Positions 13,025 to 24,061 are shown, counted from the stretch's first letter. The stretch is 64,000 nt of DNA from Candidatus Xenobia bacterium (GCA_045863235.1 BTUM01000004.1:32001-96000); one strand, 5' to 3'. Notes: generated by a model not told the origin, from the sequence alone. Program-made: numbers and translations.

Positions 13025-14554
13025 TCAGGGCAACTCGCCCAGCCCGAGGAGCCCGAACACCTGATCAAAGTAGAGCAGGTAGTGTTTGGGCATCTCGTTT
13101 CCCACATTGACGATCTGCCCATTGACATCGACGGCGTATCCATGGACCTTCTCGGTCAGAAAGATGGTCTTCTCGCCCTGAGTGGTCGCCATGCTCGCCG
13201 TGATGGTGTTCTGAAGAACGGAGGCATCGTTGCGGATCAGATAAGAAGGGAAAGGCAGCGACTGCACACTGCTACTCGCTCCTGTGTCCAGCAGCGAATT
13301 CCACAAAGCCGGGGCCGGTCCGCCTGAGAACTGATAGGTAATGGGCACGGCGGCGTCATCCCAGAACAGGGTGGAGGCAGGCGGCGTGCCGCCGGTCAGG
13401 CCCGAATCATCGCTCTGGGTCGGGGGCAGTTGCACAGTAGCAAAGTCTGTCGGATTAAAGGAGCCAAAGCGGATCTCGTGCCCGGGGCGATTCAGGACGA
13501 AGCCCTGGTTGTAGGGCTCGGGGAAGAAGATGCGGGGGGTTACCGAGCTATTCAAGCGCAAACCAAAAATCGCGTTGTTGCGGCCTCCCCCGCTCACGAC
13601 ATCGTCCTCCACGACCAGGATGGGGATCATCGCCACAGTGGAGAGCACGGTGTCTTCGCTGTTGAGCAGCTCGACCCGGGCGTAGCCCAGCTTTCCGGGA
13701 CGCGGATTGGTACCGTGGGCATAGGTGATGGTTACATTCGTATCGGTCATGGTCACATCCGGGCCGATGTGGCTCTGACCCACCACCAGGGCTCCAGAGC
13801 CCGTGTCCAACTCGGTGAAGACGCGTTTACCGCCCCCGACGCGAATGTGGATCCCGGTTTTGTGGCCATAGTCCAGAGTGGGGACGGACACGAAGCCCTG
13901 ACCGATGGTGAGAACCGCCTGAGCTTCCAGTGCGCCAAAGCGAGCCAGGATCAGGGCGCTCCCGGCAGCCAGTGCCTGGGCCTCGCCCAGTTCATTGACC
14001 CTGGCCACGTTCGGCTCGCTGGACTCCCAATCCACCCCATGGCTGACGTCCACCTCGTCGCCCCCTGGCAGAGTGGCCCGTGCTTTGAAGGTGGTCCTGC
14101 CTCCCACCTCGGCCTGGGAAATCGGGGGTGTGACACTAAGGGACTCAGGTTTCTGAAGGTGGGAAAAAGTCACCCTGGACGTGCTCCCACGGGTGACGGT
14201 CACCCGCTGATGGCCCGCTCCCACGGCCTTGCCGGAGCGGTCTTTGAACACCAACACCACGTGGTAGTCGGCCGACTCGTCGACCAGGAGATCGACCTGT
14301 TGAACGGAGCTGGCATTGCTCAGAGTGAGCTTGCGCTGGACCAGCGCGCCGTCTTCCCTGCGCAGCGCCACATCGAACTGGGCCACCTGGCGGCCAAGAT
14401 CCACCTTGACAATGGTGAGCGAGACCAGCGCCGGCGGTGCAGCTGTCAAATTGGCGGGATCGGCGGGGAGGTCGCCCCCGCAGGCAACCACCAGTACGAT
14501 GAGAGCAATCAACAGGCTTCGCACTTCAAACCTCGCATCAGGCAGCCCGTTCAC
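13025..14554 (-). CDS. Lipoprotein with Ig-like (Big_2) domain and pepsin-like aspartic protease domain
   Basis: Lipobox LVVAC; VDWESSEPNVARV Big_2 motif; two catalytic-type motifs ELDTGSG and LLDTGAS; late NVGN...YLLYFD...LLGL strand pattern. Confidence 0.75.
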   Translation of the reverse strand: MNGLPDARFEVRSLLIALIVLVVACGGDLPADPANLTAAPPALVSLTIVKVDLGRQVAQFDVALRREDGALVQRKLTLSNASSVQQVDLLVDESADYHVVLVFKDRSGKAVGAGHQRVTVTRGSTSRVTFSHLQKPESLSVTPPISQAEVGGRTTFKARATLPGGDEVDVSHGVDWESSEPNVARVNELGEAQALAAGSALILARFGALEAQAVLTIGQGFVSVPTLDYGHKTGIHIRVGGGKRVFTELDTGSGALVVGQSHIGPDVTMTDTNVTITYAHGTNPRPGKLGYARVELLNSEDTVLSTVAMIPILVVEDDVVSGGGRNNAIFGLRLNSSVTPRIFFPEPYNQGFVLNRPGHEIRFGSFNPTDFATVQLPPTQSDDSGLTGGTPPASTLFWDDAAVPITYQFSGGPAPALWNSLLDTGASSSVQSLPFPSYLIRNDASVLQNTITASMATTQGEKTIFLTEKVHGYAVDVNGQIVNVGNEMPKHYLLYFDQVFGLLGLGELP

Positions 14555-14621
14555 GGGCCTCGGGCTCTCGGCCTGTTTGGCTGATCCGCAGCGCGGCCGG
14601 CCAGCACCCAGGCCCCACCCT

Positions 14622-15191
14622 CTAAGGCCGAGCCAGAGCCAGCTCCGGATACAGGTTGCGATACTGCTCCCGGTGCACCAGAACCGAACTCACGAAGGCA
14701 CGGGTCTCGGGGTAGCCGATCTCATCCAGGCTCAAACGTCCGTCTGGGCCGCGCCAGCGCTCGACGTTGGACGGGCCTCCGTTGTAAGCCGCCAGGGAGC
14801 TAACCAGGTCGCCCTCGTAGCGGTCGAGCAGGGTGCGCAGGTAGCTCGTACCCAGGCGCAGGTTCAGGTCGGGGGTAGCCAGGTTGAGGGGTCCGTTCAG
14901 GCCCTGGCGGCGGGCCATCTCGTCGGCCGTGCCGGGCATCAGCTGCATCAACCCTACAGCTCCCACGGGGCTTACGGCCCGGGGCGAGAAGCGACTTTCC
15001 TGATACACGACGGCCGCCACCAGGTAGGGGTCGAGCTGGTTGGAACGGGCCTGGCGTATCAGCTCGCTGCGGTAGGCCAGGGGATAGAGACAACGCTGAA
15101 ACGAGGGGAACAGGGTGAGCAGGGGGAGCACACACAGGCCGAGCCAGAATCCGTGTCGTCTGTTGAGCAACCGCAAAAGCCGCCTTTTCAA
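14622..15191 (-). CDS. Soluble lytic transglycosylase (SLT domain)
   Basis: QESRF, GAVGLMQLMP, LAAYNGG, ETRAFV; TTG start overlapping the coaE stop. Confidence 0.92.
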   Translation of the reverse strand: MKRRLLRLLNRRHGFWLGLCVLPLLTLFPSFQRCLYPLAYRSELIRQARSNQLDPYLVAAVVYQESRFSPRAVSPVGAVGLMQLMPGTADEMARRQGLNGPLNLATPDLNLRLGTSYLRTLLDRYEGDLVSSLAAYNGGPSNVERWRGPDGRLSLDEIGYPETRAFVSSVLVHREQYRNLYPELALARP

Positions 15192-15778
15192 GCCTCCACC
15201 CGCTGCAGCCACGTGGACTCGATCTGGCGCACCGTCTCCTCCGGCGAGCCGGAATTATCGATCACCACGTCGGCTCGCTGGAGCCGCTCGCCGGCGGACA
15301 TCTGGGCGCTTCGCCGGGCCTCGGCCTGTTGAGCTGAGAGACCGTCACGTCGCATGAGACGCTCGAGTTGCACCTCAGGACGAACGTGAACTACCCAGAC
15401 CTGATCGACATACCGTTCGCCCCCATGCTCGAGGAGGAGGGGCGCTACCAGGACCACAACGGGATGGGTACGTGAATGTTCTCCAAGCTGGTGATGAATT
15501 TCCTTCCAAATCGCAGGATGGGTAATCTGGTTCAGGCGCTCCAAGGCCTGCGGATCACCGAAAACCCTGCCAGCCAGGCCCTTGCGATCGAGCTGGCCGT
15601 CGCTTTGCAGGATGTCGGGCCCGAAAGCTTCAACCAGTTGACCCAGCACCGGACTGCCAGGCCCGGTCACCTCGCGGCTGACCTGATCGGCATCGACCAG
15701 GGCCGCGCCACGACGAGACAACTCATCGGCCACCAGGCTCTTGCCGCTGGCAATCCCCCCGGTCAGCCCGATGATCAC
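15188..15778 (-). CDS. coaE: Dephospho-CoA kinase
   Basis: IIGLTGGIASGKS P-loop, DAD, LDRKGLA, ITHP, PLLLE, VIDNSG. Confidence 0.96.
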   Translation of the reverse strand: MIIGLTGGIASGKSLVADELSRRGAALVDADQVSREVTGPGSPVLGQLVEAFGPDILQSDGQLDRKGLAGRVFGDPQALERLNQITHPAIWKEIHHQLGEHSRTHPVVVLVAPLLLEHGGERYVDQVWVVHVRPEVQLERLMRRDGLSAQQAEARRSAQMSAGERLQRADVVIDNSGSPEETVRQIESTWLQRVEA

Positions 15779-15783
15779 CTGCG

Positions 15784-17283
15784 TCAGGCGTTCTCTTCGG
15801 CGGGTGCTTCCGACGAGGGTTCCTCGGCCGGGGCCGCGGACGCAACTTCGGGCTCCATCGCTTCAGCTTGGGGTTGGACGGTTGTCTCGACGAGCGGAAC
15901 CTCGACCACCTCAGCCACCGGAGCCGGAGCAGGCTCGGGGGCCGACTCCGACCTGGGGGCAGGTTTGGGCTTCTCCTCCTGGGCCGCGCTCTGGCCCAGC
16001 AGCTGGGCCTTCAAGGCATCCGGCAAACGATCGCCCAGAGTGAACCCGGTCGAGGAGTCTCCACCCCGATCCCGGTACTCGGCTGGCATGGCCATGCCCG
16101 GGTTCGCCTGACGCAGGGAGAGCGTGATCCGACGCGTGTCGGGGTTCACGTCCAGCACCTTCACCTTGACCTCTTGCTCGGGTTTGAGAATGTCCTGGGG
16201 CTTTCCCACCCGGAAGTCGGCCAGCTCATTGATCGGGATCAAACCCTCCACACCATCGGCAATCTCGACAAACACATAGTTCTTGACCAGCTTGCTGACC
16301 TTGCCGGGTACGATACTGCCCTCTTTGAAATTCTCTGTGATGGTCATCCACGGGTCCGGACGAGCCTGCTTGAGCGACAGCGAGATGCGCTCCTTGGACT
16401 TATTGATGCTGAGGATGCGCACATCCACCTTCTCGCCCACCCGCACCACCTCGCTGGGGTGCTTGATGCGCTTCCAGGCCAGCTCGGAAATGTGCACCAG
16501 GCCGTCCACGCCGCCCAGGTTGATGAAAGCGCCGAAGTTGGTCAGTCGAGCCACGGTTCCACTGACGATCTGGCCCTCGTCCAGGTCGCCCATGGTGCGC
16601 TCCTTCATCTTGGAGCGCTCCTCCATCAAGGCGTTCTTGCGAGAGAGCACCACCTTGCGGCGAGCCTTGTCCACCTCGACCACCTTCAGCTCGAGCACCT
16701 CACCGACGTAGTCGGACAGGTCGTGCACCGGGCGCAGGTCGACGTGGGAGGCGGGCACGAAGCCGCGCAGCCCCAGATCGACGATCAGTCCGCCTTTGAC
16801 CTGCTCGGTGCAAGTGGCCGTGAGCGTCTGGCCCGTTTCCTGGGCCTTGAGCACGCGCAGCCAGGCTGACTCGAGGTCGGCCCGCTTCTTACTCAGGATC
16901 AGGACGCCCTCGGAGTCTTCCACACGCTGGACCACCACGTCGATGGTCTCGCCCACTTTGACGACTTCCTCGGGCGGCAGGTTGCGATGGCTCAGCTGGC
17001 CAACCGGGATCTTGCCCTCGGTCTTGTAGCCCACGTCGACCAGGACGCCGTCTGCGTCGACCCTCACCACCACGCCCGACAGGAACTCTCCAGGCGCGAT
17101 CTTCTTGAACGAATCCTCATAGGCCATGGCCGAGGCCATATCGGCGCCCGGAGTGGTGCCCTCCTGGGGGGCCGGAGTCGCTGCCTCGGCGGCTTCCTCG
17201 GTGGCGGCCGGAGTTTCGGCGGCCTGCGCGACGGCTTCGGCCTCGGGCTGCTGCTCGGTGGATTCGGTCTGGGTGTTGGTCAT
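15784..17283 (-). CDS. rpsA: 30S ribosomal protein S1 (four S1 domains, acidic/Pro-rich termini)
   Basis: VDVGYKTEG, GLRGFVPASHV, FGAFINLGGVDGLVHISEL, GVEGLI; AAGGAG RBS. Confidence 0.96.
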   Translation of the reverse strand: MTNTQTESTEQQPEAEAVAQAAETPAATEEAAEAATPAPQEGTTPGADMASAMAYEDSFKKIAPGEFLSGVVVRVDADGVLVDVGYKTEGKIPVGQLSHRNLPPEEVVKVGETIDVVVQRVEDSEGVLILSKKRADLESAWLRVLKAQETGQTLTATCTEQVKGGLIVDLGLRGFVPASHVDLRPVHDLSDYVGEVLELKVVEVDKARRKVVLSRKNALMEERSKMKERTMGDLDEGQIVSGTVARLTNFGAFINLGGVDGLVHISELAWKRIKHPSEVVRVGEKVDVRILSINKSKERISLSLKQARPDPWMTITENFKEGSIVPGKVSKLVKNYVFVEIADGVEGLIPINELADFRVGKPQDILKPEQEVKVKVLDVNPDTRRITLSLRQANPGMAMPAEYRDRGGDSSTGFTLGDRLPDALKAQLLGQSAAQEEKPKPAPRSESAPEPAPAPVAEVVEVPLVETTVQPQAEAMEPEVASAAPAEEPSSEAPAEENA

Positions 17284-17569
17284 GGCGCTGGTTGCTCCTT
17301 TCGATGTGGCTCTGCTACGACAGAGCCGGTCAGTTGTTACTGTGGTCGGCGGTGGGATTGCTGCGAAGCGTGCAGCGCTCGCCCGGGAAGTTCCCCTCGA
17401 AGAGAAAATTCGCCCCGCTTCTCGTTTTCCTGTCTAACGCGACGAAAAAATCGCGTTGGGACAAATATTCAAGCCAATTTTGCCGCTCCATTGTGCGCGA
17501 ACGACCAACCGATCTCCTGCTAGGAGCGCAGCCGGAAACCCCCTTGACACGGTTTTCCGGCTGCGCGAC

Positions 17570-17615
17570 GCCCAACATGTTGTGCTAGAAGTTCGGCGCC
17601 TACAACATCTTGTGG
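17570..17615. promoter_or_regulatory. Tandem NrdR-box-like palindromes
   Basis: GCCCAACATGTTGTGC (17570) and CTACAACATCTTGTGG (17600), 30 bp apart. Confidence 0.5.
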
Positions 17616-17717
17616 TGGCGGAGGTTCCCTCCGACACCACAGGGGGTTTGCGGCCGGACTTCTAGCGGCGCAAACCCTTTGACAAAGTTTACCGGCCGCG
17701 GCGACGCCCGAAAGCGA

Positions 17718-17753
17718 AGAAGTCGGGCCTCCCGTTCAGGAGCGCCCGACTTC
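17718..17753 (-). terminator. Probable terminator hairpin downstream of the polA-like gene
   Basis: GAAGTCGGGC...GCCCGACTTC inverted repeat, followed on the minus strand by a short T-rich run. Confidence 0.55.
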
Positions 17754-17774
17754 CCAGCCGTCTCCAGAAAGAGG

Positions 17775-20579
17775 CTACCGACGTGCCACGGGCTCGGCCT
17801 CGATACGGCGCGGCTGAGCCCAATTGGGACCGTGCAGCACCTCGACGGCCACCGGCACATCCAGTTGCCGCACGCTCTCCATGATGCGGGCCACTTCGCG
17901 AGCCAGCGACTCCTTCTGCTTCGGCTCGATCTCGAAGATCAGCTCGTCGCGCAGTTGCATCGCCAACATTCCGGGCAGGCTACCCTCACGCTGACGATGG
18001 ACGATCTGCACCATGGCCGTCTTGAGCAGGTCGGCGGCCGAGGCCTGCACGGCTGCGCCTCGAGCAGTGCGCTCAGCTGTGTCTCGAATGTCGGAGTTGC
18101 GGCTGGTCAGTTCGGGCATCGGACGGCGTCGACTCTGCAAGCTGGTTACCCAGCCCCGAGTGCGAGCCTCCTCCAACTGCTGGTCCAGGAACCGCTTGAG
18201 CTGAGGATACTTCTCGGCGAAGCGTCCCTGAAACTGCTCCAGACGACTGGAGGCGTCCGCGGCGGTAATGCCCTGGCGCCGGGCCAGGCGGTGCACGCCG
18301 GCCAGGCTCAGGGCCACTTCGCGGGCGTCCTTCAGCACGTCCTCGTCCACCTCTGCGGGAGCCACTTCCAGGAGCTCGGAAGCCAGCTTGCGCGCGGCAT
18401 CCTCGGAACGGGTGAAGCTCTTGAGCAGACCGCTCTCCTTGGAAAGGTGGGCAGCCAGGCGCAGGTCAAGTTGGGCGTAGCGCACGCCCAGCAGAATGCG
18501 CTTGCGGTCACGCGGGATCAGCGCGCCCTTGAAGTGGGTGCGCAGCTCGTCTCGAATGCTCAGGTTGGGCAACTCTTCCACTTCAGCCAGAAGCCGGTTG
18601 AAGGTGGCGACCGCTCCCCCTACCAGGCTCGGGCCCATCCACTGGATACGCTCGGAGGAGGTGACCAGGTGGTCAGCCGAGCGCAACAGCCAGCCGTGGC
18701 GCGGGTGCACCAGCCGGGGCAGGGCTTCGAGATAATAGGCGCGCAGCTCCTTGAGCGCCCGCCAATCGCGAACCAGGTTGCCAATCTCGTGCTGCTCGGA
18801 CACCTGAACCAGCAGCTCAGGGCCGACGGTGGCGCCGTTCTTGGGCCGGTTCAGGACCTGCAGGCCCATCCGATCGAAGAGCACCTCGGTGAGGTCCTTG
18901 GGTGACTCGAGGTCGAACTTCTCGCCTGCGTAGGCGAAGATCTGGCTCTCCAGATCGCGGGTCAAGCGATCGATGTGATCGGAGAAGTCGTCCAGACGGC
19001 CCGCGTCCAGCCCGACTCCGTTCTTCTCCATCGAAGCGGCCACCCAGACCATCGGCATCTCGATCTCTTCGAACGACTCGAGCAGATCGCTCTCGGCCAG
19101 CCGGTCCTCGAGAATTCGGGCCAAGCGGCCCAGACCAAGCACACGGAGACCGGCCCAGGGGGTCAGCTCGTCGGCTGGCACCTCGGACAGGCGGCGGGCG
19201 CCAGGGCCCCGGCCGAGCAACTCGGACTCGCTGGGGATGTCCACCCCGTAGCGGCGTCCAATCTCGTCGAGCCAGAAGTTGCCTTCCACCGAATCGAGCT
19301 GGTGGGCGGCCACGGCTACGTCGAAGAAGCTGGACTGAGGCCAGTCGCCCTCCACTCCGTCGAGCAGCAGGGCCCCACGCAGGTTGTGGACGTACTTGCG
19401 ACGATCCTCGCGCTCCAAGGCGGGACGCAGGAGCTCGATAGCCGCAGCGGGCTTCATATCCGTCTTGCGGGTGCCCAGCGGGACCACCAGAGCTTGCTGC
19501 TCGTTGGCGGACACAGCCAACCCGACCAGGTCGCTGCCGCTTCCCAGCCACAGGATGGACAGCGGTCCGTCGCCTTGAGCGATGCGACCGAGCGACTCCT
19601 TGGCCTCTGCGCCCTTGGCAAAGCGGATCTCGACCGGTAGAACTTCAGCGTGGGAGCCATTCCCGTTGCCATTGCCGTTGCTATTGCCGTTGCCATTGGC
19701 CGCACCCGACTCGAGCGATTCGAGCAGCTCCTCCACCTCCAGGCGACGGAAGACGTCCTTGACGCGAGCCGGGAAGTGCAGCTTGTAGCTGAACTTCTCC
19801 CAGCAGACATCCAGCTCGAGATCGGTGCGGATGGTTGCCCGAGTCTTGAAATCGAGCGCCAGATCACGGTTCTCCGAGAGCGGGTTGCGCCACTTGGCAG
19901 GCAGCAGCTGGAGCGAGTTGAGCAGATCCTCCAGGCTGCCGTGCTGAGAGAGAAGCTTCTTGGCGGTCACCTCGCCGATACCAGGAACGCCGGTGATGTT
20001 GTCCGAGGAGTCGCCGGCCAGAGCACGCAGGTCGGCCAACTGGGCCGGGCTCAGGTTGAAGCGCTTGCGCACGAGATCATCATCGTAGACCAGCATGTCC
20101 GAGATACCGCGCCGGGTCGTGAGCACGCGCACGTTGGGGCGAACCAGTTGCAACAGGTCGAGATCACCCGAGATGATCATCACCTGCATCCCCTCTTCCG
20201 CGGCCATGCGCGAGAGGGTCCCGATGCAGTCGTCGGCCTCGTGGCCGCGGACCCGGTAGACCTGCACCCCGAAGGCGCGGATCAGATCTTCGATGAGAGG
20301 GAGCTGATGTGCCAGCTCTTCAGGCATCTCCATCCGCTGCGCATTGTAGTCTTGATAGCTGCGCACCCGCTCGGTGGGCACGCCTTTGTCGAAAGCCACC
20401 GCGACGTGCGTGGGCTTTTGCATCTGCACCAGCTTGATGAACATGTCGGCGAAACCGACCACGGCGTTCGTGGGGGTGCCAGAAGTGGTCTTGGTCGGAG
20501 GAACCGCGTAGAAAGCGCGATAGGCCAGACCGTTGCCATCAATGAGAAGCAGTTTCCTGCTGTCGGACTCCATATGCAT
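17775..20579 (-). CDS. polA: DNA polymerase I homologue with degenerate polymerase active site
   Basis: 5' nuclease domain (LLIDG, EADD, SGDLD, GDSSDN..GVPGIG), vestigial 3'-5' exonuclease region and family A polymerase fold; motif A reads GVRYAQLDLR, motif C reads QLRDEL. Confidence 0.9.
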   Translation of the reverse strand: MHMESDSRKLLLIDGNGLAYRAFYAVPPTKTTSGTPTNAVVGFADMFIKLVQMQKPTHVAVAFDKGVPTERVRSYQDYNAQRMEMPEELAHQLPLIEDLIRAFGVQVYRVRGHEADDCIGTLSRMAAEEGMQVMIISGDLDLLQLVRPNVRVLTTRRGISDMLVYDDDLVRKRFNLSPAQLADLRALAGDSSDNITGVPGIGEVTAKKLLSQHGSLEDLLNSLQLLPAKWRNPLSENRDLALDFKTRATIRTDLELDVCWEKFSYKLHFPARVKDVFRRLEVEELLESLESGAANGNGNSNGNGNGNGSHAEVLPVEIRFAKGAEAKESLGRIAQGDGPLSILWLGSGSDLVGLAVSANEQQALVVPLGTRKTDMKPAAAIELLRPALEREDRRKYVHNLRGALLLDGVEGDWPQSSFFDVAVAAHQLDSVEGNFWLDEIGRRYGVDIPSESELLGRGPGARRLSEVPADELTPWAGLRVLGLGRLARILEDRLAESDLLESFEEIEMPMVWVAASMEKNGVGLDAGRLDDFSDHIDRLTRDLESQIFAYAGEKFDLESPKDLTEVLFDRMGLQVLNRPKNGATVGPELLVQVSEQHEIGNLVRDWRALKELRAYYLEALPRLVHPRHGWLLRSADHLVTSSERIQWMGPSLVGGAVATFNRLLAEVEELPNLSIRDELRTHFKGALIPRDRKRILLGVRYAQLDLRLAAHLSKESGLLKSFTRSEDAARKLASELLEVAPAEVDEDVLKDAREVALSLAGVHRLARRQGITAADASSRLEQFQGRFAEKYPQLKRFLDQQLEEARTRGWVTSLQSRRRPMPELTSRNSDIRDTAERTARGAAVQASAADLLKTAMVQIVHRQREGSLPGMLAMQLRDELIFEIEPKQKESLAREVARIMESVRQLDVPVAVEVLHGPNWAQPRRIEAEPVARR

Positions 20580-20889
20580 TTGATTCTCCCATAGCTCACC
20601 CGCGTGTTCTGACGCTTCTCGATTACAGAGCGTCAGACTCCGGCGGGACGGCAAAGGCCCGCGGTGAGACCCCCCACACACGGGCCAGGGCGCAATCTCA
20701 ATAAATTGCGTGCCGGGCGATATTTGCGATTGTAGATTCTGACCTGGACCCGGACAAGGGGCCCCCGTCAGGGGCGCCTATGTTCTGCGACCGAGGGGGT
20801 AATCCCTTCCCCCCGGGAGAAACTCGCCTGCACCAGCGGGGGCTTGGCGTTCAGGCCTCAACCGCCCAAAAAGGTGTTCGTAGCGCCCC

Positions 20890-22947
20890 TCAGGAAGCCG
20901 GGGCGACCATGGTTTCTTGGTTCTCCAGGACCAGGGCGTCGGCCACGATCTCGGCGATGTCGCGGGTATCGATCTCGCCCGCCAGATCCTTGCGTCCCAG
21001 GGCATCGCTCATCATCGTCAGACAGAACGGGCAAGCCGAGGCGATCATCTTGGGCTTCTTGGGCAGATCGAGGGCGTCTTGCAGGCGCAGGTCGTTGACC
21101 TTCACCCCGTGCTCCTCCATCCACATCCGCCCGCCGCCGGCGCCACAGCAACGACCTCTCTCGCGGGACAACTCCATCTCCTCCAGGCGCACGCCCGTGG
21201 CCGCCAGAACCTCCCGGGGCTGCTCATAGATGTCGTTGTAGCGCCCGAGATAGCAAGAGTCGTGATAGGTGGCCTCGGTAGGCTCGCCAAAGCGCACTTT
21301 GATTCTGCCTTCCTTCATCAGGTCCTGGATCAGCTGGGAGTGATGCTGCACGACGTAGTCCCCGCCAAACTGGGGATACTCGTTCTTGATGGTGTTGAAG
21401 CAGTGGGGGCAGGCCGCCACCACACGCTTGACGTTGTAGCGGTTCATGGTCTCGACGTTCTGCTGGGCCAGCACCTGGTACAGAAACTCGTTGCCGATGC
21501 GGCGGGCGGGATCGCCGCTGCAGCCCTCCTCCTTGCCCAGAATGGCGAATTTCAAGCCAGCCGCCCGCATGATCTTGACCAGGGCCATGCTGACCTTCTT
21601 GTTACGCTCATCGAACGATCCAGCGCATCCCACCCAGTAGAGCACGTCAATCTCTCCGGGCTCGTCGGCCATCTCCTTGACCTCGAGGTCCTTGGCCCAG
21701 TCGGCCCGCTGCGAAAAGCCGATCCCCCAGGGATTGGAGTTGTTCTCCATGTTCTTGAAAGCTCGCTGCACCTCTTGCGGGAAGCGGCCTTCCACCTGGA
21801 CCAGGTAGCGACGCATGTCGACGATCTCTTGCACGTACTCGATGAAGACCGGACAGGCCTGCTCACAAGCGCGGCAGGTGGTGCAGGCGAAGAGAGCCTC
21901 TTCCGACACGGCCGGTATCGAATTCTGCAGCACCCTCAGCTCCTGGGTGGGCTCCTTGCCAGCCCGCTTGTCGATGACTCCCTGCCCGTGCTCGACCAGC
22001 TCCTCGCGCAGCTGCTCGGAGATCTTCTTGGGGTGGAGAGGTTTTTCGCTGGCAAAGGCCGGGCAGACCGAGGTGCAGCGCCCGCACTCGGTGCACGAGA
22101 GCCAGTCGTGGTAATTCTTCCAGGTCATCTGGTCGAGAGTGGAGGTTCCGTATTCCTCGTTCTCCAGGTCGAGCTTGGTCAGCTCGCCGTAAGGGCGTTT
22201 CTTGTTGAAGTAGACGTTGGGGATGCCGGTGATGATGTGGAGGTGTTTGGAGTAAGGGAGGTAGGCTCCGAAGCCGAGCACCAGAGCCAGATTGATCCAC
22301 CAGGACACCTCGCGAATCGTGCTCAGGGTGGCCGGGTCTCCTCCCGCCACGCCGGCAAAGCTGGCGTAGAGATTGGAGGTAATGGGGTGGGTGCGCATCA
22401 TCAGGGTGTATTCCTCGGGCGTGAGGGAGGACATCAAGTGCACGCCCACGTCGGCCGCTCCCCAGACCAGCTCCACTACCATCAAACTCCAGATCAGCGC
22501 GAGGATGAGCAGAGCGTCGCCGGAAGGCTCGGGGAACTTGGGCCGAATCACCACCCGGCGCCAGACCGCCATGAAGACGCCGACCATGACCAGCACGATG
22601 AAGCACTCTTTGATGATGGAGTAGAAGGCGCCCAGGGGCTCGTTCACGGCCAGCAGCGGCAGATTGAACTCAGGACCGAAGAAACCTCGCAGGATCAAGG
22701 TCGAATTGGCGATGACCAGAACGCAGAAACCCCAGAAGATCAGGGCGTGGAGGATACCTCCGTAGGCCCTCTTGAGCAGGCGCTTCTGGCCGAAAGCGAA
22801 CACGAGCACATCGGCGATCCGCTCACCGGGTTTGTCAAAGCGGTTGTCAGGCTTGCCCGCCTTGATGAAGCGATACAGCTTCAGCGCCTGACGAAGAAAC
22901 AGAGTAGCGGCAACCGCCACCATCAGGGTCGATACTAAGATTCGCAT
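20890..22947 (-). CDS. FadF-like membrane Fe-S oxidoreductase (heterodisulfide reductase-related, CCG domains)
   Basis: N-terminal TM domain, CTECGRCTSVCP and CTTCRACEQACP, ACPHC, YHDSCYLGR, CCGAGGG, ACPFC. Confidence 0.92.
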   Translation of the reverse strand: MRILVSTLMVAVAATLFLRQALKLYRFIKAGKPDNRFDKPGERIADVLVFAFGQKRLLKRAYGGILHALIFWGFCVLVIANSTLILRGFFGPEFNLPLLAVNEPLGAFYSIIKECFIVLVMVGVFMAVWRRVVIRPKFPEPSGDALLILALIWSLMVVELVWGAADVGVHLMSSLTPEEYTLMMRTHPITSNLYASFAGVAGGDPATLSTIREVSWWINLALVLGFGAYLPYSKHLHIITGIPNVYFNKKRPYGELTKLDLENEEYGTSTLDQMTWKNYHDWLSCTECGRCTSVCPAFASEKPLHPKKISEQLREELVEHGQGVIDKRAGKEPTQELRVLQNSIPAVSEEALFACTTCRACEQACPVFIEYVQEIVDMRRYLVQVEGRFPQEVQRAFKNMENNSNPWGIGFSQRADWAKDLEVKEMADEPGEIDVLYWVGCAGSFDERNKKVSMALVKIMRAAGLKFAILGKEEGCSGDPARRIGNEFLYQVLAQQNVETMNRYNVKRVVAACPHCFNTIKNEYPQFGGDYVVQHHSQLIQDLMKEGRIKVRFGEPTEATYHDSCYLGRYNDIYEQPREVLAATGVRLEEMELSRERGRCCGAGGGRMWMEEHGVKVNDLRLQDALDLPKKPKMIASACPFCLTMMSDALGRKDLAGEIDTRDIAEIVADALVLENQETMVAPAS

Positions 22948-23117
22948 GCTCGAGATACTCCGCCGGATGGCCCGAGAGATCGGTCAAAGTGAAGTGTTGA
23001 AGGTTTTGCAGGAATCTGCCATGGAGGCGCCCCCCGAAGGAGAGGCAAAACCCGTAACGCTCAACACATTATCGCGGGTTTGCTGTCGGGGCGCGTGAGT
23101 CCTTTTCCAACTTGGAC

Positions 23118-23147
23118 TTGTCATCGGGCGGGTGCGGTCCCTATACT
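23118..23147 (+). promoter_or_regulatory. Putative sigma70 promoter
   Basis: TTGTCA, 18-bp spacer, TATACT, 8 nt before the TTG at 23156. Confidence 0.6.
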
Positions 23148-23155
23148 GAGGCGAT

Positions 23156-24061
23156 TTGTTGCCCGGAAAGCCCGTCTGGCGCAGCCCCAATGGCTCGCTC
23201 TACCTCGCCTCGCTCTTCTTCGCTTTGATGGGGGTCTGCATCAAGCTGCTGACAGGTTCTGACGCCTCCACACACGGGTTGGGCTGGCGCCTGGCTGGAA
23301 GCCACGACATGGATGCGGTTCCCATCGCCTTCTACCGCTCCCTGTTTCCGGCCCTGGCGCTGCTGCCCTGGCTCTGGCACGATCTCTTCAAGAGCGAGAC
23401 CCGACGCCATCTCCCCGTGCTCATCCTGCGAGGGCTGGCGGGCGGGGGAGCCATGGTGGCCTACTTTGTGGCGATCGACCGCACCGAGCTCTCGACCGCG
23501 GTGCTGCTCAACTACACCTCCCCGGTCTGGGCCGCCCTGCTGGCCGGCTACTTCCTCAAGGAGAGCGTGCCGCGCAACATCTACCTGGCCTTTCCGGTGG
23601 CCTTTAGCGGGGTTTACTTCCTGACCGGAGGGGCCGGGGACGCGCCCGAGCCAGGCCGCATGGTGGGTTACCTGGCGGGCCTGGGCTCGGCTGTGCTGGC
23701 CGGTATCGCCTATACCTCGGTCCGCCAGCTCAGCTCCCACGTCTCGGCCCTCATGGTCGTCTTCTGGTTCTCGCTCGTGAGCTGCGTGATGTTGCTGCCC
23801 TGGCTACCTGCCCACCCTCTTCCCTCCCCCGGCGAATGGGTGCTGTTGCTGCTGGCCGGGATCTTCGCGGGTGTAGCTCAGTGGACCATGACCATCGGCT
23901 ATCAGCTCAACAAGGCCGCCCGGGCCAGCACCATGAACATCGCCACGGTGGCCATCACGTCTTTGCTGGCCATCACCCTGCTCGGTGAGCGTTTCACCCC
24001 TCGCGACGGGGTGGGGATGCTTTTGATCCTGCTCGGCCTGGTGATCGCCTCGCGGCGCTAA
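23156..24061 (+). CDS. DMT/EamA-family transporter
   Basis: About ten TM helices in two repeats; LNYTSPVWAALLAGYFLKE and LLGERF motifs. Confidence 0.9.
   Translation: MLPGKPVWRSPNGSLYLASLFFALMGVCIKLLTGSDASTHGLGWRLAGSHDMDAVPIAFYRSLFPALALLPWLWHDLFKSETRRHLPVLILRGLAGGGAMVAYFVAIDRTELSTAVLLNYTSPVWAALLAGYFLKESVPRNIYLAFPVAFSGVYFLTGGAGDAPEPGRMVGYLAGLGSAVLAGIAYTSVRQLSSHVSALMVVFWFSLVSCVMLLPWLPAHPLPSPGEWVLLLLAGIFAGVAQWTMTIGYQLNKAARASTMNIATVAITSLLAITLLGERFTPRDGVGMLLILLGLVIASRR

Follow-up and report, generated by a model that had tools for sequence, protein, structure and literature searches.

The native DNA polymerase I (Pol I) gene of a Candidatus Xenobia bacterium has, to judge from the residues at its active site, almost certainly lost the ability to synthesise DNA, and the inactivation extends through the order to which this bacterium belongs. 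The window analysed is the whole stretch of 64,000 nucleotides (GCA_045863235.1 BTUM01000004.1:32001-96000) from the source genome (G000, 97.6% complete), whose host belongs to the phylum Vulcanimicrobiota. The gene, referred to here as pseudo-polA, lies at 17775..20579 on the minus strand, as do the other coding features of the window given below. As a preliminary description made from the sequence alone had stated, it is an uninterrupted open reading frame (ORF) of 934 aa (P0001); an alternative in-frame GTG start at 20681 would extend the product to 968 aa. It is proposed, with moderate confidence, that the product is a selected pseudo-Pol I that holds nicks and flaps and cleaves them slowly or not at all.

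The ORF has Pfam matches to 5_3_exonuc_N, 5_3_exonuc and DNA_pol_A, and is the only PF00476 match in the source genome. Its DNA_pol_A score is 244 bits, versus ~500 for the active PolA of relatives, and it falls below the NCBIfam polA cut-offs; these dead genes carry the annotation 'DNA polymerase I'. Downstream lie rpsA, coaE and a transglycosylase gene. Because rpsA also follows the active polA of other orders, the dead gene is the native polA, and the source protein nests among the polA of the phylum in trees, as expected for vertical descent. The housekeeping context noted in the preliminary description thus stands as a polA-rpsA-coaE locus, in a member of the Vulcanimicrobiota and not of the Actinobacteria or Firmicutes named there. 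The host order is probably Xenobiales, a name that we presume applies here, since a database family B polymerase (PolB) named Ca. Xenobium sp. sits in the clade of family f3 of the order. Sequencing error, raised earlier as a possible refutation, does not account for the substitutions: a contig from an independent run covers 17755-19981 with a single base difference, at 19203, and the motifs are shared by 4/4 congeneric genomes. Contigs from RNA runs also span pseudo-polA, although contigs cannot show expression.

The polymerase domain has lost its catalytic residues and keeps DNA contacts

From the order, 36 full-length copies were aligned, leaving out three fragments (G015, G021 and G036) and one split copy (G026), and residues were mapped onto M. 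smegmatis Pol1 with contact residues taken from PMC7102940. By alignment and structure comparison, the polymerase-fold domain (residues 501-920, 17820..19079) is catalytically dead. Motif A reads GVRYAQLDLR, in which the catalytic Asp is replaced by Arg700 (codon CGC, 18480..18482), at the site where the preliminary description had placed this change. The motif A Asp is present in 0/36 copies from the order versus 16/16 active relatives. The degenerate motif B, or O helix (residues 748-768, 18276..18338), aligns as VLKDAREV---ALSLAG, with Arg changed to Leu749, Lys to Arg753 and Tyr to Ser758 and three residues deleted, so that the reported loss of its essential residues is confirmed. Across the order the O-helix Lys is found in 0/36 copies, the motif B Tyr in 1/36 and the His that binds deoxynucleoside triphosphate (dNTP; M. 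smegmatis H713) in 0/36; the motif A Asp and O-helix Lys are the counterparts of D684 and K737 of M. smegmatis Pol1. Motif C (RDE, residues 877-879, 17943..17951) was correctly described as LRDE: the source protein reads QLRDEL and retains both Asp878 and Glu879, the Asp (M. smegmatis D861) being kept in 21/36 copies.

A different set of residues is invariant. K580, R676, R817 and R837 are present in 36/36 copies and R644 in 35/36, and further conserved arginines occur at 578, 604, 827, 832 and 840. In M. smegmatis Pol1 the residues matching R644, R676, R837 and K580 are R646, R660, R820 and K582, all in contact with the primer end and template (PMC7102940). The fingers segment R817-R837 (18069..18131) has both Arg residues invariant and the added conserved R827 and R832, and the thumb loop RPKNG (residues 578-582, 18834..18848) stands in place of KTKTG, and its R, P, K and G do not vary across the order. 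The preliminary description held the TGRLSS..PNLQN region to be lost. It is instead remodelled around an order-specific insertion of ~12 residues (motif 2, 18573..18644; modelled helix 655-668), and the flanking arginines R644 and R676 are those conserved in the order.

The dead gene is under selection and retains the fold

By the method of Nei and Gojobori, the dead polymerase domain has a ratio of nonsynonymous to synonymous substitution rates (dN/dS) of 0.009-0.164 for 21/22 pairs (one being saturated), compared with 0.042-0.141 in six active control pairs and 0.009-0.066 for the 5'-nuclease, or flap endonuclease (FEN), domain. Among five dead pairs that were resampled, the highest bootstrap upper bound is 0.227. 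The orthologue comparison called for earlier therefore returns conserved inactivation, not neutral decay. An AlphaFold2 model of the source protein has a mean predicted local distance difference test score (pLDDT) of 84 and a predicted template modelling score (pTM) of 0.82. Taq and M. smegmatis Pol1 take the top Foldseek ranks, and the template modelling (TM) score is ~0.8 to the Bacillus and E. coli large fragments, so the structural check likewise finds a Klenow-like fold retained. With inactivation in 36/36 aligned copies, dN/dS far below 1 and an intact fold, the suggestion of a selected pseudo-polymerase is supported. Several invariant motifs are new to the order: KWRxPL, RPKxG, the motif 2 insertion, R109, A182 and R247.

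Between the FEN and polymerase domains lies a vestigial 3'-5' exonuclease domain (residues 315-500, 19080..19637), which is folded in the model; a PF01612 search of the source protein gave no match in this region. It is preceded by an Asn/Gly-rich linker (residues 295-313, 19641..19697; pLDDT <50) whose length varies between strains, with in-frame 6- and 12-base deletions in other runs.

The FEN domain keeps its metal ligands and has lost the arch lysine

The FEN domain (residues 8-285, 19725..20558) retains, as described from the sequence, all nine acidic ligands of metal sites I and II in the source protein (D14, D64, E114, D116, D117, D139, D141, D190 and D193), together with R82. In the order, D14, D64, D116, D117, D139, D190 and R82 are present in 36/36 copies; sub-lineages show erosion of the other ligands, with D141 kept in 22/36, D193 in 13/36 and E114 changed to Gln in 6/36. 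A lack of site II ligands is a mark of FENs that are weak or poor in exonuclease activity (PMC2650880). The helical-arch motif YKxxR reads YNAQR, as noted before, with Asn79 (20343..20345) replacing the arch Lys. This Asn is found in 36/36 copies from the order versus Lys in 189/190 active database PolA. From the motif, we take position 79 to be equivalent to the arch Lys of hFEN1 (K93). The K93A substitution in hFEN1 lowers the rate from 683 to 0.3 per min, ~2000-fold (PMC3378889). From sequence comparison, K79N thus favours weak or absent cleavage in the order. Two other changes once listed as lost conserved lysines, GDLD and GEVTA, are not diagnostic, because Leu140 occurs in 9/16 and Val204 in 3/16 active polA of the phylum.

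Dead and active polA in the order and phylum

All 40 genomes of the order carry the low-scoring polA copy. It is the only copy in 5/5 genomes of family f1 and 19/19 of family f3. No second family A gene was found in the source genome by family search, by tblastn with dead and active queries, or with a hidden Markov model of 31 active PolA run over six frames. Family f2 has an additional high-scoring polA in 15/16 genomes. The second active polA that the preliminary description implied was thus not found in the source genome or in 24/24 genomes of f1 and f3, and exists in f2. The additional f2 gene has intact motifs, with ADWSQIELR in motif A (L071-L073, L005-L020). It falls outside the polA of the phylum in a FastTree phylogeny, except that the G035 copy groups with another part of the phylum, and it lies away from rpsA in the three loci with long flanks; its foreign position in the tree and its separate location indicate import. 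A further polA copy of another type is present in G007, G023 and G035. One dead polA (L067:5690-8968, G024) exceeds its orthologues by ~120 residues and has an insertion in its middle part.

Outside the order, 209/218 genomes of the phylum have a PolA match at E 1.6e-140 or better, a count that includes nine unpublished outgroup genomes on which no sequence claim draws. Weaker matches in several pieces occur in 5/218, and that of G178 has stops. Motifs were read for 18 of the 209 and are intact in 18/18. One 631-aa PolA in G066 (L185:625-2520) lacks a FEN domain and has intact motifs and an N-terminal extension, resembling PolA3 or prophage forms.

A second dead lineage comprises G045, G050, G055 and G059 (L112-L115), each with a single full-length polA that adjoins rpsA and has broken polymerase motifs, and each with a PolB. 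The FEN domain is intact there and YKAHR is kept. G045 is the mildest case, having kept the Asp of motif A and the Lys of motif B but neither the Tyr nor the motif C Asp. Eleven database proteins are of this type. Three genomes that share a class with the order (G040, G091 and G097) have an active polA; together with the differing substitution patterns, this favours two separate losses. Approximately unbiased (AU) tests do not reject a single origin of the dead polA (FEN, p 0.333; PolB, p 0.063), and the FEN, RpsA and PolB trees do not fix the deep branching order. Among database matches, those without catalytic residues number 40/269 and 11/120, all of these two lineage types; no further dead PolA was found among these matches, the searches being centred on the queries and not a survey of bacteria. 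A divergent dead PolA with the FEN arch YNALR (P0236), perhaps from a further lineage of the order, appears among the 50% cluster representatives.

Candidate stand-ins for primer removal and gap filling

The source genome encodes two standalone FEN-like proteins, two DnaE, a DinB-like PolY, a PolX and a PolB (L135:1456-3789, C27). The alternative route of Okazaki fragment maturation anticipated in the preliminary description therefore has candidates, in the standalone FENs and the family B polymerase. A standalone FEN is present in 24/24 genomes of f1 and f3, and its catalytic motifs are intact in 10/10 sequences of the order examined. In 3/4 genomes of the second lineage, no FEN was found other than that of the dead polA.

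PolB was counted in a 251-genome sample, in which the genomes with dead polA alone are three of f1, 17 of f3 (G018 partial) and the four of the second lineage. It is present in 24/24 of these versus 20/214 others (two of the unpublished genomes among them) and 8/13 f2 genomes; 18 of the 20 others belong to one family with a distant PolB form. The polymerase motifs are intact in 24/24 aligned PolB. Proofreading motifs are preserved in G066 and the second lineage and eroded throughout the order, in which the PolBs group as a single clade branching in line with the families. A search for conserved functional neighbours of either PolB or the standalone FEN yielded only an M20 peptidase next to the FEN. 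In family f18, a distant PolB occurs in 18/18 genomes alongside an active polA, and one of these proteins (L210, G084) has a clamp-motif-like end, EQLSM.

DnaE is by analogy a real alternative to PolB for gap filling. In B. subtilis, strand displacement by DnaE serves to repair Okazaki fragments, and deletion of polA leaves the strain near wild type (PMC13082043), with primers removed by a separate FEN (PMC10191290). The 2.4-Mb genome G006 (96% complete) has one DnaE, a PolB and a dead polA; PolX and PolY were not found in it, and it is the only f3 genome searched for PolY. PolX was rejected as a stand-in, having been found in none of the 19 f3 genomes.

A proposed role at nicks and flaps, and the alternatives

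The native Pol I of the order is proposed to have become a non-synthesising protein that binds DNA junctions. Its Klenow-like cleft would use the retained arginines to grip the template and 3' end at nicks and gaps, and the FEN domain would engage the 5' end or flap by means of R82 and metal site I. Owing to K79N, cutting by the FEN domain would be slow or nil. The protein may then keep Okazaki and repair junctions in place and shielded, restrain strand displacement and pass the junction to other enzymes, ligase among them, with primers removed by a standalone FEN and gaps filled by the family B polymerase, DnaE or both. That a dead polymerase domain can still act on a junction is indicated by polymerase-dead M. 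smegmatis Pol1, which cleaves flaps at the positions used by the full-length enzyme and not at those of the isolated FEN domain (PMC7102940); the authors speculatively tie the full-length pattern to binding of the primer end by the polymerase domain.

The strongest competitor, though on balance unlikely, is a nuclease-only Pol I, in which a working flap endonuclease is merely aimed at nicks by the dead Klenow part. The nine acidic ligands and R82 are all present in the source protein, and the FEN domain, at 62% mean identity in the order versus 46% in active relatives and dN/dS of 0.009-0.066, is the better conserved. Noncanonical PolX offers a precedent (PMC9226535), and this is the likely reading for the second lineage, which keeps YKAHR and in which the dead gene supplies the sole FEN found in 3/4 genomes. 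Against it in the order are the arch substitution in every aligned copy, the change of E114 in six, D141 in 14 and D193 in 23 of 36, and the intact standalone FEN alongside in all 24 f1 and f3 genomes.

Distinctly less probable is a protein scaffold, kept mainly for contacts with PolB, DnaE, the clamp, ligase or repair factors in the manner of ImuB or the dead half of Pol epsilon. Such a role would account for the new invariant motifs, which catalysis does not explain, and for the retention of the dead gene in f2 despite an imported active polA and standalone FENs. The best-kept residues of the polymerase domain are nonetheless the DNA-contact arginines, no PolB was found in genus g4, and no clamp-binding motif was noticed by eye in the dead PolA, no systematic search having been made.

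Residual or unusual polymerase activity through substitute residues (D878, E879 and D705 in the source protein) is very improbable. Although the source protein has the motif C Asp and Glu and a basic R753, the motif A Asp is missing from every aligned copy and the motif C Asp from 15/36, no substitute is conserved across the order, and M. smegmatis Pol1 D684A-D861A, a double mutant and not a single change, has <1% activity (PMC7102940). Least credible of all is sequencing error or a neutrally decaying pseudogene with an active polA missing from the assembly: all the genomes are incomplete assemblies and the G026 copy is split, but this reading is refuted by agreement between independent contigs, 36 full-length copies, dN/dS of at most 0.164 and the absence of a high-scoring polA from 24/24 f1 and f3 genomes when one is seen in 15/16 of f2.

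Several observations weigh against the proposed junction-holding role. The polymerase domain is 33% identical among nine representatives of the order versus 52% among 16 active relatives, which implies a looser or shifted constraint, and in G026 the dead polA is split into two frames. The register of motif 2 is ambiguous: the assignment of R644 comes from the multiple alignment and is backed by FN-x7-RL spacing in f3, whereas in a pairwise HMMER alignment the partner of M. smegmatis R646 is R662 (27/36), and pLDDT falls below 50 over residues 628-641. Thumb contacts are lost or acidic (N558 to Asp in 31/36, Q564 to Glu or Asp in 28/36, R615 to Glu or Asp in 29/36), which could weaken duplex binding. 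The association with PolB rests on two lineages, within which kin are not independent. Genus g4 has no PolB found (0/6) and, besides the imported polA, retains the dead gene, whose dN/dS there is 0.03-0.05; the retained job thus needs neither PolB nor status as the sole FEN, and an obligate PolB partner is contradicted.

A wider scenario is offered tentatively. Two lineages of Vulcanimicrobiota, probably separately, may have passed Pol I synthesis to PolB and so arrived at an archaeal- or eukaryote-like Okazaki route of PolB and FEN. The four-genome lineage would represent a first stage, with a dead polymerase and an intact sole FEN, and the order a second, in which the standalone FEN takes over and the old Pol I becomes a silent but required nick-holding factor. 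If true, this hand-over reveals a non-catalytic function of Pol I.

Comparison with known systems

Pol I is present in ~96% of bacteria, and to our knowledge every PolA subfamily so far described is regarded as active. The protein of the order shares with canonical Pol I (PolA1; E. coli, Taq and M. smegmatis Pol1, PDB 6vde) the order of FEN, vestigial exonuclease and polymerase domains, the fold and the polA-rpsA-coaE locus. It differs in lacking the metal- and dNTP-binding residues, in the motif 2 insertion and in the Asn of the FEN arch. PolA2/APEX, PolA3 and PolA1-like proteins show the converse, lacking a 5'-3' exonuclease domain and keeping the catalytic residues. According to PMC10201439, none of the 19 PolA clusters departs from strict conservation of the catalytic residues. 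In the portion covered, PMC12926913 reports only 3'-5' exonuclease inactivation for PolA1, and the dead polymerases that it deals with are PolX and PolY, not PolA1; the part of its supplement covered has no Vulcanimicrobium or Eremiobacter entry, and its per-protein tables may hold such cases.

Noncanonical prokaryotic PolX likewise combines substituted catalytic residues and dNTP-site deletions with a conserved nuclease domain (Prostova et al. 2022, PMC9226535). It is an accessory enzyme of family X with a patchy distribution, in contrast to a near-universal replication gene whose dead form is fixed in an order and whose nuclease is itself likely crippled. Other dead polymerase folds with non-catalytic roles are ImuB, of family Y, and, in family B, the C-terminal half of Pol epsilon; they belong to other families, are paralogues or modules, and have known partners, whereas here it is the orthologue itself that is affected. 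Okazaki maturation without Pol I synthesis, by way of a separate FEN, would be shared with the B. subtilis polA deletion and with Pol I-less bacteria such as Tenericutes and Verrucomicrobia, which use a standalone FEN (PMC12926913). In Pol I-less bacteria the domain or gene is lost; the order instead keeps the dead domain entire, under selection and with PolB alongside.

The PolB of the order may be akin to the G3 group of bacterial PolB (Kazlauskas et al. 2020, PMC7544198), which is marked by a conserved motif C Glu and a position in the EpsilonN-like clade: it has intact motifs A, B and C, a Glu before DTDG (LEVDTDG in the source genome) and close homologues in Geobacter and other phyla. Set side by side by description, the uncharacterised G3 PolB has an intact proofreading site, unlike the eroded exonuclease motifs of the order. 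The parts of PMC7544198 covered draw no link between G3 PolB and loss of Pol I. No published report of a polymerase-dead Pol I orthologue, or of the polA of these lineages, was found in the literature covered, subscription journals lying outside it. Dead polymerases kept for other roles are already known (PMC9226535 and PMC7544198, as covered); what is new here is that the housekeeping gene itself is affected, order-wide. A dead Pol I under strong selection throughout an order separates catalysis from the other roles of Pol I at nicks, assigns a candidate role to an uncharacterised group of bacterial PolB and cautions against the label under which these genes are annotated.

Neighbouring genes and other features of the window

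Downstream of pseudo-polA, profile matches and locus comparison place the conserved neighbour rpsA at 15784..17283. It is followed by coaE, also a conserved neighbour (15188..15778), and by a lytic transglycosylase gene (SLT; 14622..15212) whose position is conserved in the order; the four genus g8/g9 loci examined are without this neighbourhood. Immediately upstream of the dead polA, at 20890-22947 on the minus strand, is a gene for a membrane Fe-S/CCG oxidoreductase, found in most f1 and f2 loci. A weak sigma-70-like site (TTGTCC-17-TACAAT, 9/12) lies at 20729-20757 on the same strand, ~150 bases upstream of the start. Between polA and rpsA, at 17516-17667, is a dispersed palindromic repeat of ~150 bp, REP/MITE-like, which folds with z -5.75 and has 24 BLAST matches of at least 120 bases in the source genome, itself counted. 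An Rfam search over 14000-24000 gave no match. At 13025-14554 on the minus strand, an Ig-like (Big_2) domain is fused to a PE-PGRS-type aspartyl peptidase-like domain.

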